DNA of 64,000 nucleotides from Candidatus Saccharimonadota bacterium (lineage in GTDB: Bacteria; Patescibacteriota; Saccharimonadia; Saccharimonadales; 2-12-FULL-41-12), in assembly GCA_022842995.1 (NCBI GenBank), contig JALHOM010000005.1:6503-70502 (forward strand), read 5' to 3'. Both the position numbers and the translations under genes were made by a program. This document shows positions 27,425-64,000 of the stretch, in pieces; the first letter of the stretch is position 1; each line of letters starts with the position of its first letter. Under the pieces are notes generated by a model that saw only the letters and a list, made by a program, of their open reading frames with translations, had not been told where the DNA came from and did no database searches.

Positions 27425-27778
27425 TGGTGGGGGCGGCTGGACTTGAACCAGCGACCAATCGGTTATGCGTACCACTACAGCTTTCGCTGCCTTTTTCAAG
27501 TTTGCTGGTCTGGACTGTCTCTTCATCCGCTATGTATAACGGAGCCTGCCATTCAGTCTCTACACCTTCCCGTGTTTTTTACGCGACGGGCTTGGCTCGG
27601 GATTACCATATTAAAGGCTTCCCCGAATTTGACAGGATATACTTACTAGTTACCCGGTAAGCAGCCCTTTTTTATGCGACATGTCTAAGGCTGAAATCTG
27701 ATAATAAAATCAGTGCAGAATTTAGATTTAGTTACATGTAAATTGAGCCGACTGCTCTAACCACTGAGCTACGCCCCC
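27425..27778 (-). tRNA. tRNA(CAU), ileX/tRNA-Ile2-like (or elongator Met), interrupted by a group I intron in the anticodon loop
   Basis: Joined exons give the 76-nt sequence GGGGGCGTAGCTCAGTGGTTAGAGCAGTCGGCT|CATAACCGATTGGTCGCTGGTTCAAGTCCAGCCGCCCCCACCA. This is a full cloverleaf with a G1-C72 pair (not initiator-like), anticodon CAT and an encoded CCA. The D-loop and TTGGTCGCTGGTTCAAGTCCAGC match E. coli ileX as I remember it. Confidence 0.85.
27468..27745 (-). ncRNA. group I intron, subgroup IC3 (Azoarcus/Anabaena tRNA-intron type), 278 nt, no ORF
   Basis: The minus-sense sequence contains GTCAAATTCGGGGAAGCCT, TATGGTAATCCCGAGCCAAGC and GAAGGTGTAGAGACTGAATGGCAGG. These are near-identical to core strings of the Azoarcus tRNA-Ile intron as recalled. 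P3 CCTG/CAGG, P7 GACTG/CAGTC and a P9 CAGC-GAAA-GCTG hairpin are present. The 5' exon ends in U33 and the intron ends in G. Confidence 0.85.
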
Positions 27779-60133: not shown

Positions 60134-61360
60134 TTACTCAGCCTGAGCTTTTGCAGGTTGTGTTAACGAATATACGGCGGCGCTATGCGCACGTACAAGC
60201 ATCTGGCGAACCGCTTCGGCTGTCTCTTCGTCTGAAAGCATGGTGTTATTTAGTATTTGATCAGGTACTTTAAGACCTAGTACTTTAGTTATTAGTTCAG
60301 CTTTCCGTTGTAGTATTCGATCAATTGTTACCGTGTCGTTATCGGCGACGAGAGTGATGTTATCTGGATATTGGATAGGTTCTCGTTGGCTGTTATTTTT
60401 ATAGAACTCTAAGAATTGGTTCCATAGATCCTGTTCGGGCACTTCTGAAAGTTGGACAAGGGCGTCAAAATGAGATTTGAGTTTTTGGGCGCCCATGCCG
60501 CTGACGTGGTGTAACTCATATTTGTACTCGTGCTCGCCCATCCGGGACTCAGTTGCGTTAATCCATGACTCTAAGCTTGTTCCTGCAAGTCGCAGGGCAT
60601 TTTCTCTTATCCTGGCAATTCTATTGGATCTTTCTACTAAGACTTCTTCGCTTTCGGGTATGCGTAAGAACTCTACGTTTTCTTCACTTAACATTTGCGC
60701 GCCAAGGACTCTCGGGTCTTGATTTCTAATTTGGTAACGCTCGGACACAATTCTTTTAGCTAATTTCATTTTTGCGATATGATATTCTTTTTGAGCAAAA
60801 ATATCTTCAGAAAGCATTTGAGCAATAGCGAGTAGTTCTTCTACCGGTAATTCTTCGCCTGTTGGATCTTGATCGGTACGGTATGTATCTAGATCACTTA
60901 AAGCGGACCTGGCGTTTAATACGCGCTCAGTCGCGTCATTGGTCTGCTTGGTTATTTTTAGTCGTTCCTGGATCTCTTCCCCTTGAAGAAACTTTTGAGT
61001 CACTTCAGTCAGTAAGATAGATTCGGCAGAATTAGGGTTAGTATAAGGGCTTCCTTCAGCTTCGGCTGAGGCAACTATTCTGATTCCGTATACCATGTTA
61101 ATGGTTCGATTGACAGCTTCAGACTTTGAGAGTTCGTTAAGGCTAGACAATACTCCTGGTAAATCTTTGTTCCGTACTTTTTGAAGTGCCATTAAAATGA
61201 ATTGATCATCGACTTGATTTGGGTCCATCAAGCCTACGACCTCAAGGATATCTCGGGCAAAAGTATAATCGTCATCTGCGCCACTAGGTGCATCGAAGTC
61301 TGCACGGTAAGAGAGCGCAGTTGAGGCAGTATCGGGATTTAAACGCCATGTCTCGTTCAT
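60134..61360 (-). CDS. hypothetical helical protein
   Basis: 408-aa ORF with no recognisable motif. Confidence 0.5.
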   Translation of the reverse strand: MNETWRLNPDTASTALSYRADFDAPSGADDDYTFARDILEVVGLMDPNQVDDQFILMALQKVRNKDLPGVLSSLNELSKSEAVNRTINMVYGIRIVASAEAEGSPYTNPNSAESILLTEVTQKFLQGEEIQERLKITKQTNDATERVLNARSALSDLDTYRTDQDPTGEELPVEELLAIAQMLSEDIFAQKEYHIAKMKLAKRIVSERYQIRNQDPRVLGAQMLSEENVEFLRIPESEEVLVERSNRIARIRENALRLAGTSLESWINATESRMGEHEYKYELHHVSGMGAQKLKSHFDALVQLSEVPEQDLWNQFLEFYKNNSQREPIQYPDNITLVADNDTVTIDRILQRKAELITKVLGLKVPDQILNNTMLSDEETAEAVRQMLVRAHSAAVYSLTQPAKAQAE

Positions 61361-61477
61361 TAAATATTATTATACCATATTTCTCTACGTTAAAGAAATA
61401 TTTGTCAAATAGATTAATGAATGTGTCTTAGGGGAAATTGAGGGCAGGGAAATGCACGTTGTTCTTGGCCTGAAAGC

Positions 61478-61514
61478 GCCAGGGCAAACGCACGACTACA
61501 GCCATGCTTGGAAT
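61478..61514. repeat. partial copy (37 nt) of element X, copy X1
   Basis: GCCAGGGCAAACGCACGACTACAGCCATGCTTGGAAT matches 63320-63356 and 61691-61727 with a few substitutions. Confidence 0.85.
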
Positions 61515-61520
61515 GTATTG

Positions 61521-61659
61521 TAGTGGCCAGGACTCGCCCACGTTCCGCGGTCACTTTCAGCGACCCCGAGATTTCGTTCAATCAAGCACAGTTTGATGAA
61601 GAAAGTCTCCTTGCAATGAGCCCACTGGGCTTTTTCACCTGGGACCTTTTAGCGTCCTG
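61521..61659 (-). repeat. element Y copy A: degenerate tRNA-fMet 3' portion with a ~101-nt insert in the T-loop
   Basis: It shares GGCCAGGACTCG-CCCACGTTCCGCGG and AGCCCACTGGGCTTTTTCA-CCTGGGACCTTTTAGCGTCCTG with copies B and C. The middle of the insert is unrelated. Confidence 0.85.
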
Positions 61660-61690
61660 GAGCCGAGACATAAGCGCATGTTCAAAAAAA

Positions 61691-61727
61691 GCCAGGGCAA
61701 GCGCACGACTGCAACCATGCTCGGAAT
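61691..61727. repeat. partial copy (37 nt) of element X, copy X2
   Basis: GCCAGGGCAAGCGCACGACTGCAACCATGCTCGGAAT. It is followed at 61733-61762 by GGGGCCAGGAATATAGCTTCGCGCCGG, which combines a tRNA acceptor/T-stem fragment with the motif also present at 63803-63820. Confidence 0.85.
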
Positions 61728-62019
61728 GCATAGAAGGGGCCAGGAATATAGCTTCGCGCCGGCTCGTCTAGATTAATTTAAAAAGGTAGGACGAGTCGGG
61801 CTCTGCTTATAATTTGCACGATGCAAATTATCGAACCTTTTTGGCTCAAGCCCTAGACCCAAAATACCAAGAAAAAACAGCCACACGAGGTGACTGTCTT
61901 TTCTTGGTAGATTACGTGCAATCGAATTGAAACCTAATCTCAGCTTAGTTATTGAAGTGCCGGGCTATATGAATTTCATGAGTTTGAAAGAATTTGCTGT
62001 ATTGAGTGTTTTGCTATAA

Positions 62020-63096
62020 CTATTTGATTTTGAAACCGACTCTTATTTTACCTATGCCTTTTTCGGCGCTTACAGCATCATTAACAGTAATTGCGTCGGC
62101 TCGCGTAGGGGCATCAATCCCAAGGGTAGTTTCAATAGTGCTCCCAGCCGCAACGTCTGGTTGGAAGGGCTGGCCTGGCATGGGATAAATACCGCCTGCC
62201 TCTGAATATGTTCCTTGCTGCGAAGCGGAGCCTATATTCGACAGCCGAAACGGCTTATCCGTAGAATTTTCAATTCTTAATGTAGTTATTACAAATATTC
62301 CTACATACGCTTTTTCATTGCCGAGTGTCGGACTAAACTCTGTCTTTAATATGGTTACCTTAACCCCATCTACTTCTGCCGTAGAGCCGAGCGGAAGACG
62401 TTTGTCTTGTGTGGGCGTCGGTGAAATTGGCTCAGGTGAAATTATTTGTTGCGCATTATTGTGTGATAGTAAAGCAGAGATTCCACCAAATACTACGGTA
62501 GTCACAATGACAGTAATAATTAAGTATGTCTTCTTAAGCTTGACACTAAATTTCAATAGAAGCGTATAAATAACAAAGAAAAAGAGCAATGAGACAATTA
62601 GGAACACCGTATCCTTGACGAAGTGCATTAAAATTCCCGGTATCAAAAATAGCAAGTGAGCGATTATTATATTTCGTTTTTGCACCCAAGTCATGTTAAA
62701 TAGCCGCAATATTCCAAAGACCAGAAGCGGTGCTAGCGTTATGAAAAGTAGAGGTAAAATAAATAGTTCGAGCAGCAGCGAATCGAATATGCCAAATCGG
62801 TACACGAAGAACGAAGAGCCAAAAATTATTTTCAGTAAGGCAACAACCAAAGTACTGAAGATCGCCAACATATATAGATTTTGTGGTTTGAATGCCGTAA
62901 TCTCTTTTGATGCCCTATTGTCATTTTCAAATGGTTTAAATGATTCATGTATATGTTCTTCACTCCATCCATGATTGCGAAAATGATCTTGTAGTTGATT
63001 AATAGGATAGCCATGCCGCAGATGCTCTTTGATGTATTCATGGATACTATGTTTATTATCTAACATGTCACTGATTATAACAGCCAGGAACTTCAT
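62020..63096 (-). CDS. polytopic membrane protein with C-terminal extracellular beta-rich domain (DUF4352-like)
   Basis: ORF 62020..63267. Its first 57 codons are read from the tRNA-derived repeat, and the same 36 aa also head the spurious ORF 63311..63589. The real start is taken as ATG 63096 (MKFLAVIISD...). It has five or six TM helices, then GSTAEVDGVKVTILKTEF...FVITTLRIENSTDKPF. The gene looks AT-rich by eye. Confidence 0.55.
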   Translation of the reverse strand: MKFLAVIISDMLDNKHSIHEYIKEHLRHGYPINQLQDHFRNHGWSEEHIHESFKPFENDNRASKEITAFKPQNLYMLAIFSTLVVALLKIIFGSSFFVYRFGIFDSLLLELFILPLLFITLAPLLVFGILRLFNMTWVQKRNIIIAHLLFLIPGILMHFVKDTVFLIVSLLFFFVIYTLLLKFSVKLKKTYLIITVIVTTVVFGGISALLSHNNAQQIISPEPISPTPTQDKRLPLGSTAEVDGVKVTILKTEFSPTLGNEKAYVGIFVITTLRIENSTDKPFRLSNIGSASQQGTYSEAGGIYPMPGQPFQPDVAAGSTIETTLGIDAPTRADAITVNDAVSAEKGIGKIRVGFKIK

Positions 63097-63157: not shown

Positions 63158-63286
63158 ATGGTAGCGGGGCCAGGACTCGCCCACGTTCCGCGGGCCCGCC
63201 ACAACATCTTTGCAAAGCCAGTTTGCAAGAGTTGATGGCCTTGCAAAAGCCCACTGGGCTTTCTCACCTGGGACCTTTAGCGTCCT
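63158..63286 (-). repeat. element Y copy B: tRNA-fMet 3' portion (position ~44 to CCA) with an 87-nt insert in the T-loop
   Basis: Minus sense: CAGGACGCTAAAGGTCCCAGG-T-[GAGAAAGCCCAGTGGGCTTTTGCAAGG...GGCGGGCCCGCGGAACGTGGG]-CGAGTCCTGGCCCCGCTACCA. The flanks are identical to the genuine tRNA at 63670-63700. Confidence 0.9.
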
Positions 63287-63318
63287 GAAAATGGAATCTA
63301 GGGATATGATTTATAAAA

Positions 63319-63439
63319 AGGGCCAGGGCAAACGCACGGCTACAGCCATGCTCGGAATAAATTCCTGCGCGTGGCTTTGCCGACCGAACCGTGTGACCTT
63401 CGCCAGCAAGCTGGCGGGTCCCAGGTTCAAGCCCTGGCC
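63319..63439. repeat. element X (full copy): 121-nt hairpin-rich element closed by a perfect 10-bp stem GGGCCAGGGC/GCCCTGGCCC
   Basis: Positions 63416-63439 are an inverted, uninterrupted copy of the tRNA-fMet T-arm/acceptor junction (22 of 24 nt match 63677-63700). Internal hairpins are CGCCAG-CTTG-CTGGCG, GGAA-TTTA-TTCC and GCATGGC-TGTA-GCCGTGC (minus sense). Confidence 0.9.
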
Positions 63440-63441
63440 CA

Positions 63442-63472
63442 TAAAGAAAAAAATCCCAGCAAATGCTGAGAT
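63442..63472 (-). terminator. Rho-independent terminator downstream of Y copy C
   Basis: Minus sense: AATCTCAGC-ATTT-GCTGGGATT followed by TTTTTTTCTTT. Confidence 0.7.
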
Positions 63473-63479
63473 TCTTTTC

Positions 63480-63607
63480 TTGGTAGCGGGGCCAGGACTC
63501 GCCCACGTTCCGCGGGCCCGCCACAACATCTTTGCAAAGCCAGTTTGCAAGAGTTGATGGCCTTGCAAAAGCCCACTGGGCTTTCTCACCTGGGACCTTT
63601 AGCGTCC
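63480..63607 (-). repeat. element Y copy C (identical to copy B over ~127 nt; 322-bp period)
   Basis: By eye, 63480-63606 is identical to 63158-63284. The copies diverge beyond GCGTCC. Confidence 0.9.
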
Positions 63608-63633
63608 CAGCCTCGAGTCCGGCATCACCGACC

Positions 63634-63663
63634 AAGTAAAAGACCCCATCTTGCGATGAGGTC
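63634..63663 (-). terminator. Rho-independent terminator of tRNA-fMet
   Basis: Minus sense: GGACCTCATC-GCAA-GATGGGGTCT (GNRA loop, two G-U pairs) followed by TTTTACTT. It starts 6 nt after the CCA end. Confidence 0.65.
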
Positions 63664-63669
63664 CATTAC

Positions 63670-63744
63670 TTGGTAGCGGGGCCAGGACTCGAACCTGGGA
63701 CCTTGTGGTTATGAGCCACACGAGCTGCCACTGCTCTACCCCGC
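63670..63744 (-). tRNA. tRNA-fMet (initiator-like, anticodon CAU), CCA encoded
   Basis: CGCGGGGTAGAGCAGTGGCAGCTCGTGTGGCTCATAACCACAAGGTCCCAGGTTCGAGTCCTGGCCCCGCTACCA. The 5' CGCGGGG...GAGCAG resembles the E. coli initiator and positions 1:72 are unpaired (C:U). The anticodon stem has only two consecutive G-C pairs instead of three. Confidence 0.85.
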
Positions 63745-63762
63745 GATATATATTGTGTACTT

Positions 63763-63789
63763 GATTATAGCTGATTGGGCGATTACACA
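63763..63789 (-). promoter_or_regulatory. candidate sigma70-type promoter of tRNA-fMet
   Basis: Minus sense: TTGTGT (63784-63789), a 15-nt spacer, then TATAAT (63763-63768), 18 nt upstream of tRNA position 1. The spacer is short, so confidence is low. Confidence 0.3.
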
Positions 63790-63795
63790 ACCAGC

Positions 63796-63922
63796 ATTGT
63801 GGTTATATTGCTTCGCGCCGGGATCACTATTTCTATAAGGGAAGGTGACCTCGGGCTCGGCATATATTCTCCTTGATCAGTCGAATATGAGCCGCTCGCG
63901 AGCTGCCACTGCTCTACCCCGC
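63796..63922 (-). pseudogene. tRNA-fMet-derived fragment: positions 1-37 and 38-46 separated by a ~79-nt insert in the anticodon loop; T-arm and acceptor 3' strand missing
   Basis: Minus sense: CGCGGGGTAGAGCAGTGGCAGCTCG (identical to the tRNA for 26 nt, including the upstream ATATAT), then CGAGCGGCTCATA-[insert]-ATAACCACAA. The similarity then fades. Confidence 0.7.
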
Positions 63923-64000
63923 GATATATTAATTTTTTGTCAAAATGGAAAAGCTATTAATCAACTACGGTTAATTATAACAGATGAGGCGACGGTTTTA

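Follow-up and report, generated by a model that had tools for sequence, protein, structure and literature searches.

A probable tRNA-fMet pseudogene fragment with a candidate mobile repeat in its anticodon loop, and the tRNA-derived units around it, in Saccharibacteria

A second, partial copy of tRNA-fMet, with a discrete insert in its anticodon loop, lies upstream of the intact gene near one end of the 64-kb stretch of Saccharibacteria DNA analysed here (the window), as a first-pass annotation had described it. The feature is probably a dead 5' pseudo-copy of tRNA-fMet whose anticodon loop was later hit by X1, a copy of a short repeat termed element X. The other readings weighed below are, in falling order of probability, a former tRNA-fMet paralog, the scar of an integration and, last and level with each other, a split or spliced RNA and an assembly artefact. 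The locus is genuine and at its core ordinary, a gene fragment that is dead and holds what appears to be a mobile repeat. As a consequence, a candidate split or intron-bearing bacterial initiator tRNA is removed, and the X family would represent small mobile elements in Saccharibacteria with a defined target duplication. Furthermore, partial tRNA copies accumulate in this phylum at the loci of tRNA-fMet, tRNA-Phe, tRNA-Ser and tRNA-Lys. The loops of these copies hold covarying modules, termed Y and Z, and the conservation of Y and Z needs explanation in genomes of ~1 Mb with little spare DNA.

The 5' fragment and the intact gene

The intact gene (63671..63745, minus strand; CAT anticodon, CCA encoded) is called both by ARAGORN and by the Rfam tRNA model (62.2 bits). 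It is the only tRNA that either finds near the window end at 64000, and neither calls a tRNA in the fragment. The fragment begins with a 31-nt exact copy (63929..63899, minus strand; 100% identity with 63751..63721) that comprises ATATAT and tRNA-fMet bases 1-25, that is, the acceptor 5' strand and the D arm. An earlier claim of identity over the leader and the first 26 nt of the tRNA thus holds for the leader and for 25 bases; at base 26 the fragment has C where the gene has T. The statement that the D arm is intact is correct. Next, the alignment against the gene shows CGAGC (63894..63898, minus strand) instead of TGT at tRNA positions 27-29, giving an anticodon stem 5' strand of CGAGCGG vs TGTGG in the gene. 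This replacement breaks the anticodon stem of the fragment and also forms a 10-nt palindrome, GCTCGCGAGC (63903..63894, minus strand).

Then, in GGCTCATA (63893..63886, minus strand), the anticodon stem ends and the loop runs as far as A37, the ATA at 63888..63886 being the first copy of the target. After the insert comes ATAACCACAA (63797..63806, minus strand), which consists of a second ATA (63806..63804) and tRNA positions 38-44, the 3' strand of the anticodon stem. The loop sequence CTCATA (63891..63886) and ATAACCACAA (63806..63797) are therefore both present, as had been noted, and are separated by exactly 79 nt (63885..63807). Similarity to the tRNA stops at position 44, i.e., after 63797. 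Lacking the variable loop, the T arm, and the acceptor 3' strand, and with a broken anticodon stem, the fragment cannot yield a tRNA. Deletion of 63885..63804 (X1 plus one ATA) yields GGCTCATAACCACAA, identical to the intact gene, and the fragment without X1 matches the gene at 46 positions save for the one 5-for-3 base replacement; removing the insert does not give complete exons or a cloverleaf, the tRNA match ending at position 44. The intact tRNA-fMet is in effect the empty site for X1. The fragment ends 50 nt upstream of the intact gene, and the 31-nt exact direct repeats are 178 nt apart, with 147 bp between them. Positions 63797-63929 should preferably be annotated as a pseudogene fragment plus a repeat element.

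Upstream of the fragment lies a promoter-like element, CCTCATCTGTTATAAT (63974..63989, minus strand), which was read from the sequence and resembles the C(C/T)CTGTT..TA..AT element present upstream of tRNA-fMet in relatives; its -35 element would fall outside the window. The spacer between fragment and gene (63752..63796, minus strand) contains a TATAAT at 63769..63764, a probable proximal promoter, followed by the ATATAT leader. A promoter consensus scan called no minus-strand promoter at the fragment or at the intact gene, and so what is said here about promoters is inferred. Given the promoter-like element upstream of the fragment and the plain TATAAT before the intact gene, the fragment would lie in a long 5' leader of the tRNA-fMet transcript, from which it would be cut away by RNase P, and it would have no role in translation. 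Three other loci (L013, L057, and L096) have a conserved long leader between the promoter and tRNA-fMet, 100-200 nt upstream (...GGGAAAAGAGCAG...GATGAGAAAAACCGTAGGTTTGTCT...), and this leader may be another structured element.

The 5' fragment has proved not to be conserved. One genome per species was scanned with a tRNA-fMet 25-mer, and the matches fell in Chloroflexota and Patescibacteria, with alignment extending beyond the tRNA at Saccharibacteria loci alone. A second 5' piece was found at 0 of the 120 other tRNA-fMet loci sharing the 25-mer; the two loci with repeated matches contain complete tandem tRNA-fMet genes. Because it is absent from these 120 loci, the tRNA part of the feature is taken to be a lineage-specific pseudogene fragment. 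When synteny was sought by way of the methyltransferase gene, the best usable homologue (66% identity) was not syntenic with tRNA-fMet. The genes of the window are ordinary chromosomal ones, including those for a class II D/K/N-type aminoacyl-tRNA synthetase, Mur ligase, Dus, CofD, ComEC, and IMPDH. A phage or plasmid origin was considered and rejected: phages gave no near match, and plasmids match the tRNA itself only.

Element X: family, fold, and mobility

Element X was sought in metagenomes by two conserved boxes, GAGCCCGA and CCGGCGCGAAGCWATAT, separated by 20-45 nt, and seven loci were obtained. A covariance model, R1, was built from seven copies. When applied to the 64-kb window, R1 matches the insert X1 (63807..63885, minus strand) with 93 bits (E = 4e-19), from which it follows that the insert is not a chance feature, and it finds only one other copy, X2 (61740..61843, minus strand; 72.7 bits). 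X2 is diverged and sits in a T-loop-like context (GGTTCG-ATA-...-AT-TCCTGGCCCC). It had been pointed out that CCGGCGCGAAGC(A/T)ATAT of the insert recurs at 61762..61746 (minus strand), joined to TCCTGGCCCC. This recurrence of the insert end in a T-loop context is correct, and the X1 and X2 contexts in fact align along the entire insert, beyond the shared right end. Besides X1 there are nine copies of X: the one in the window and eight in other Saccharibacteria contigs (L142, L143, L144, L145, L146, L147, L148, and a diverged copy, L032, found by R1). Thus the 64-kb window has two diverged copies, and each of the eight other loci has one. X1 is 79 nt long, and the other copies are about 80-90 nt. 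Their contexts are varied: the T-loop of a tRNA-Phe 3' pseudo-copy in L142, a Z module downstream of tRNA-Ser, within which X is nested, in L143 and L147, and the interval between a -10 box and a start codon in L144/L145, L146, and L148. Because it lands between -10 boxes and start codons, X can rewire the expression of genes with very short leaders.

In its fold, X has first a 5' hairpin and then a long irregular one (UAUAUG.C-GA-GCCCG, a variable hairpin, CGGCGC-GAA-G.UAUAUA). Across the copies, 95% of cells are paired, and 6 of 18 pairs have compensatory changes; 0 of 500 shuffles reached the covariation score, and the signal is lost in slid controls. Both strands of the helix GCCCG/CGGCGC, invariant elsewhere, are altered in L032, to ACCCA/TGGAGT. 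The core, GAGCCCGA ... CCGGCGCGAAGC, is invariant around a hairpin that varies in sequence but stays paired. There are no terminal inverted repeats; the ends, (A)TTCGAC... and ...GCGAAGCTAT, have no more in common than TTCG/CGAA and AT-rich tips, and the paired segments of X are internal. The coding content is a tiny variable ORF of 11-40 codons. In subtype 1, AAGGAG-N7-ATG is conserved, and the short variable ORF starts M-(T/P)-(S/N)-P. The orientation is sense in 8/8 copies with a readable neighbouring gene or tRNA. Together with AAGGAG-N7-ATG and the strongly conserved core, this orientation hints that X may have a function beyond selfish spread.

Several other readings of X were tried and rejected. 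As a K-turn, its GA/GAA internal loop has a register off the consensus, as judged by reading; as a hammerhead, CUGAU...CGAA has a core mismatch and Rfam is silent; and a guide-like complementarity between X and its target flanks fails in that the left flanks have only ATA in common. Rfam 15, searched with gathering thresholds and with E up to 5, has no family for X, Y, or Z. In viral contigs, the X and Z patterns gave chance matches in coding regions of unrelated phages, and the Y pattern gave no match. A search of the literature found no description of X or of small repeats or structured RNAs like it in Saccharibacteria, and the X family is apparently undescribed.

Evidence that X moves comes from comparing filled and empty sites. 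The gene 3' of X in L144 encodes a trehalase-family glycosidase, widespread in Saccharibacteria, and the filled spacer between pheS and this gene in L144/L145 reads TGCTATA-X-ATA-CTTAAGCGATATGG, with TGCTATA-X-ATACTTAAG and TGCTATA-X-ATACTTAAGCGATATGG as further spellings. Seven orthologous spacers (L149-L155), of 56-60 nt, are empty, TG(C/G)TATACTTAAGCGATATGG or TGCTATACTTAAG. These include the closest relative (94% protein identity), and since it lacks X, insertion is the parsimonious reading at the pheS-glycosidase site. The filled/empty comparison covers one locus family, the other insertions having as their sole backing the TATAAT boxes that are restored when X is removed from L146 and L148. 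Within TATA, 2-4 bp of the target are duplicated, most clearly read as ATA, and X1 is likewise bordered by ATA on either side. At two of the empty sites (L154 and L155) the sequence is GCTATATACTTAAG, two bases (TA) longer than at the others; the extra TA could be an excision footprint or could have arisen by simple TA slippage.

X occurs in unrelated contexts, orthologous sites are found both filled and empty, and the loop is restored when X1 and one ATA are removed. Taken together, these observations indicate that X is a mobile element, and its sequence suggests a small, structured, MITE-like one without terminal inverted repeats. In the pathway that is proposed, a pseudo-copy of the neighbouring tRNA-fMet, beginning 6 nt before the gene and extending as far as tRNA position 44, would have arisen by local partial duplication, or by recombination, at a tRNA locus that repeatedly gathers partial tRNA copies. 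X, as a non-autonomous and highly structured element, would land at ATA or TA-rich sites and duplicate a target of 2-4 bp, and X1 would have entered the anticodon loop after the copy was formed. Repeated site-specific recombination at the tRNA loops, which had been offered as an explanation, is not the best one, given that X lands at many ATA sites, including promoters.

Small MITE-like repeats known in bacteria include Correia/NEMIS, RUP, and ERIC, with CIR and YPAL/RU-2 as atypical cases (review PMC2229807). X is like them in being < 200 bp with no real coding capacity, in its TA-rich target and short target duplication, in having filled and empty sites, in the long stem-loop that its transcript would form, and in its intergenic, near-promoter landing. 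Unlike them, X lacks terminal inverted repeats and pairs through internal segments that follow a separate 5' hairpin, and an invariant core surrounds a freely varying paired hairpin. X also differs in having no known partner transposase and in that all readable copies are sense, and it may differ in copy number, two copies being seen in 64 kb. In the window, Pfam was applied to most ORFs >= 200 aa plus smaller ones from 50-64 kb; among these tested ORFs there was no integrase, transposase, or reverse transcriptase, and no IS element was seen.

The reading as a split or intron-bearing tRNA

The position of the insert, at the canonical 37/38 intron site, and the existence of both tRNA halves raise the question of a working split or intron-bearing tRNA, in which the halves would be joined or paired through a leader and trailer or the insert would be spliced out. 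This is highly improbable and has been largely refuted. The complementarity proposed between GCCGAGCCCGAGGTCACC of the insert and the start of the Y unit downstream of the gene does exist, but it is imperfect (-19.1 kcal/mol) and no better than chance. The best duplex between the whole insert and the Y start region has -27.9 kcal/mol, a value as good being obtained with 36% of shuffled inserts (mean -26.9, sd 3.8 kcal/mol), and X copies from unrelated genomes give -25 to -30.3 kcal/mol against the same Y start. Moreover, the segment in the proposed pairing is the conserved X core, which is also present in genomes without Y. The fragment's broken anticodon stem, its lack of conservation, the presence of an intact tRNA-fMet, and the occurrence of X in promoters and other non-tRNA sites likewise argue against this reading.

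Group I introns in the anticodon loops of Patescibacteria tRNAs have been described (PMC13011429), and their presence here and in relatives lends the idea of splicing some plausibility. Like these introns, X1 sits in the anticodon loop of a CAT tRNA in the same phylum. However, X1 is only 79 nt, no 3' exon is present past position 44, and element X is also found outside tRNA genes. Rfam, with E up to 5, reports RF00028 only at 27487-27697 and nothing at 63796-63922, so that no group I core is found in X1. Elsewhere in the window (27425-27778, minus strand), another CAT tRNA (elongator Met or Ile2, G1-C72), which ARAGORN does not report, carries a group I intron of 278 nt (27745..27468; RF00028, 68 bits) between U33 and C34, and a tRNA-fMet in L009 has a related intron at the same position. 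The split tRNAs of archaea and tRNAs whose introns lie at non-canonical sites (PMC3293823) also offer a parallel, with their separate 5' and 3' pieces and insertions at 37/38 and in the T-loop. In contrast, in the case considered here an intact gene is present, leader-trailer pairing is not significant, the 5' piece is unconserved, and the host is bacterial.

Partial tRNA copies and structured modules around tRNA genes

Partial copies of both tRNA halves, each with a loop insert, flank the intact gene, as the first-pass annotation had held. Downstream of the gene, a terminator hairpin (63641..63664, minus strand) is followed by Y1 (63481..63635, minus strand), which consists of a degenerate inverted copy of the tRNA 3' part (63635..63609), tRNA positions 43-54, an insert of ~90 nt, and then the remainder through CCA (T-loop 3' part, T-stem 3' strand, acceptor 3' strand, CCA). 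A model of Y, R2, matches it with 136 bits at 63608..63481. Y2 (63159..63287, minus strand; R2, 135.9 bits) has 127 nt identical to Y1, ends exactly at CCA, and is without the inverted copy, while Y3 (61518..61658, minus strand; R2, 76.7 bits) is a rearranged third copy fused to Z-type sequence (61473-61532, 61686-61745). Z1 (63317..63443, minus strand) has an inverted T-arm copy, a hairpin, GGTTCGG, the Z module (GCCACG-CGCAGGAATTTATTCCGAGCA-TGGC...), and then CCCTGGCCC. In all, the window holds three Y, three Z-type, and two X copies within 2.4 kb. Between the repeat units are two minus-strand ORFs, for a 358-aa predicted membrane protein (62020-63096) and a 408-aa acidic protein (60134-61360); neither has a Pfam match, and the 358-aa protein has no homologue but itself among 5.8 billion proteins.

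The order of terminator, inverted copy, positions 43-54, insert of ~90 nt, and remainder to CCA recurs after the tRNA in five species (the window, L049, L032, L086, and L096), with about 75% identity. The Y insert lies in the T-loop of a partial tRNA-fMet 3' copy, and the T-stem closes its three hairpins. By RNAalifold and pair counts on six sequences, compensatory changes are seen in 24 of the 41 pairs, with 95.5% of cells paired; neither shuffled nor slid controls reproduce this. An invariant G.U pair shows that the sense strand is the same as for the tRNA, and the T-stem of the copy mostly follows the tRNA of its own genome. Y is thus a conserved structured module. It was also considered as a tmRNA or permuted tmRNA, which was rejected, neither ARAGORN nor Rfam giving a match. 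In other species, Z takes the place of Y. Its hairpin covaries across 8 copies, and its core, GCCRYG-CGCAGGAGTTTACTCCGAGCA-YGGC, follows GGTTCGG in partial tRNA 3' copies after tRNA-fMet and tRNA-Ser (window, 63317-63443, 61686-61745, and 61473-61532, minus strand; L008, L013, L027, L057, L062, L071, L090, L143, and L147). Units of this kind are found after tRNA-fMet, tRNA-Phe, and tRNA-Ser, with a 5'-side form before tRNA-Lys, and are absent after neighbouring tRNAs.

The last tRNA position in the 5' piece is 44 and the first in the tRNA-like part of Y is 43/44, the two together spanning the whole tRNA, and it can be postulated that they are the remains of a former tRNA-fMet paralog with X in its anticodon loop and Y in its T-loop. 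An insertion of a ~183-bp segment (63796..63614), comprising a promoter, the now functional tRNA-fMet, its terminator, and the inverted 3' copy, would have split this gene between positions 44 and 45. For a random duplication, the chance of such a boundary match is ~4%, and the match keeps alive the idea of one split gene, or of one preferred breakpoint, for the fragment and Y. The more canonical-looking promoter is indeed upstream of the fragment. Furthermore, in L146 (1790-1950, minus strand), directly upstream of an intact tRNA-Lys, there is a contiguous tRNA-Lys-like 5' part with a Y-like T-loop insert. This part retains the acceptor 5' strand and the D arm, and its anticodon stem, which differs in sequence from that of the gene but pairs perfectly, is followed by a loop of 9 nt with CTT; it has no acceptor 3' strand, and judging from its layout it would parallel the 5' tRNA-fMet fragment. 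Against a former paralog, the Y units of L049, L032, L086, and L096 have the same left boundary and no 5' piece upstream, from which it follows that the Y unit predates the fragment and does not need one. In addition, an initiator tRNA with a broken anticodon loop never could have been the sole copy. A former paralog is consequently unlikely, if still the nearest competitor of the preferred reading, a pseudo-copy later hit by X1.

Somewhat less likely again is a Campbell-type integration, in which the 31-nt repeats would be att sites and an element would have brought in a promoter and a tRNA-fMet 5' part, the element having since been deleted down to 147 bp or else running upstream past the window. 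The known integrases that target tRNA genes displace the 3' part of the tRNA, not the 5' part. Here the displaced piece is the 5' part (positions 1-44), and 3' fragments are present downstream, in the Y/Z units. Moreover, the "element" would be only 147 bp, there is no integrase among the tested ORFs of the window, and the copy runs past the 31 nt to position 44 once X is removed. On the other hand, exact direct repeats do flank the segment, and arrays of tRNA 3' copies are present in many loci. There is also a tyrosine-integrase-like ORF directly after tRNA-fMet in L069, and a small GIY-YIG-like ORF after tRNA-fMet, flanked by a tRNA 3' copy, in L036 and L081; because of these ORFs, tRNA-fMet can be regarded as a general hot spot for inserted DNA, and hence for integration, in these groups. 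Displaced fragments are known to mark islands at tRNA and tmRNA genes (Islander, PMC4383910; Dehalococcoides ssrA, PMC3146451). The present loci resemble such islands in their partial copies beside an intact gene, in their arrays, and in that tRNA-fMet, tRNA-Phe, and tRNA-Ser are affected and neighbouring tRNAs spared. They differ in the displaced 5' piece, the 147-bp interval, and the missing integrase, and also in the structured T-loop inserts and adjacent inverted copies that accompany the 3' copies.

The lengths of the repeats, exactly 31 and 127 nt, equal common de Bruijn k values, and an assembler could have chained variant copies of the locus at repeats of such a length; independent Logan contigs confirm only window positions ~57-60 kb. 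Nevertheless, both repeats stop where the biology would place a boundary (the 127-mer exactly at CCA), the fragment still matches the gene beyond the 31-mer once X is removed, and comparable units are present in independently assembled genomes. An artefact of assembly is thus very improbable.

The terminator lies at the centre of a 47-nt imperfect palindrome (window 63604-63701), whose arms, 63604-63650 and 63655-63701, are 74% complementary. The beginning of the Y unit mirrors the 3' part of the tRNA, which then recurs in direct orientation, and this direct-inverted-direct order is also seen after tRNA-Phe (L142) and tRNA-Ser (L143). In Salmonella, tandem inversion duplications formed by template switching at quasi-palindromes have been described. 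By analogy, such switching would give both the direct-inverted-direct order and a palindromic junction. The tRNA 3' part, terminator hairpin, inverted copy, short hairpin, and direct copy do stand in the expected order, and the fragment has a palindromic junction, GCTCG/CGAGC. Unlike a tandem inversion duplication, however, the arrangement is old (five species, about 75% identity) and carries conserved structured inserts.

Another hypothesis, possible but doubtful, is that X, Y, and Z are functional structured modules mounted in the loops of tRNA-derived stems beside tRNA genes. They could be small RNAs that borrow the T-stem, acceptor, and CCA as a handle for maturation and stabilisation by tRNA-processing enzymes, or, by analogy with integron attC sites, they could serve a tRNA-linked cassette system as folded single-strand sites for recombination. 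If so, the fragment plus X1 would be a 5'-side unit, the 43/44 boundary would be a point of recombination or processing, and Chloroflexota would carry a simpler hairpin form. In L074, L098, and L115 (Chloroflexota and others), tRNA-fMet is followed by one to three tandem units of ~88 nt, each consisting of a terminator, the T-stem 5' strand, an TCCCCCAGGGGGA hairpin in the T-loop, the T-stem 3' strand, and the acceptor strand. Judged by their layout, the ~88-nt Chloroflexota units would be a simpler form of the Y/Z architecture in another phylum.
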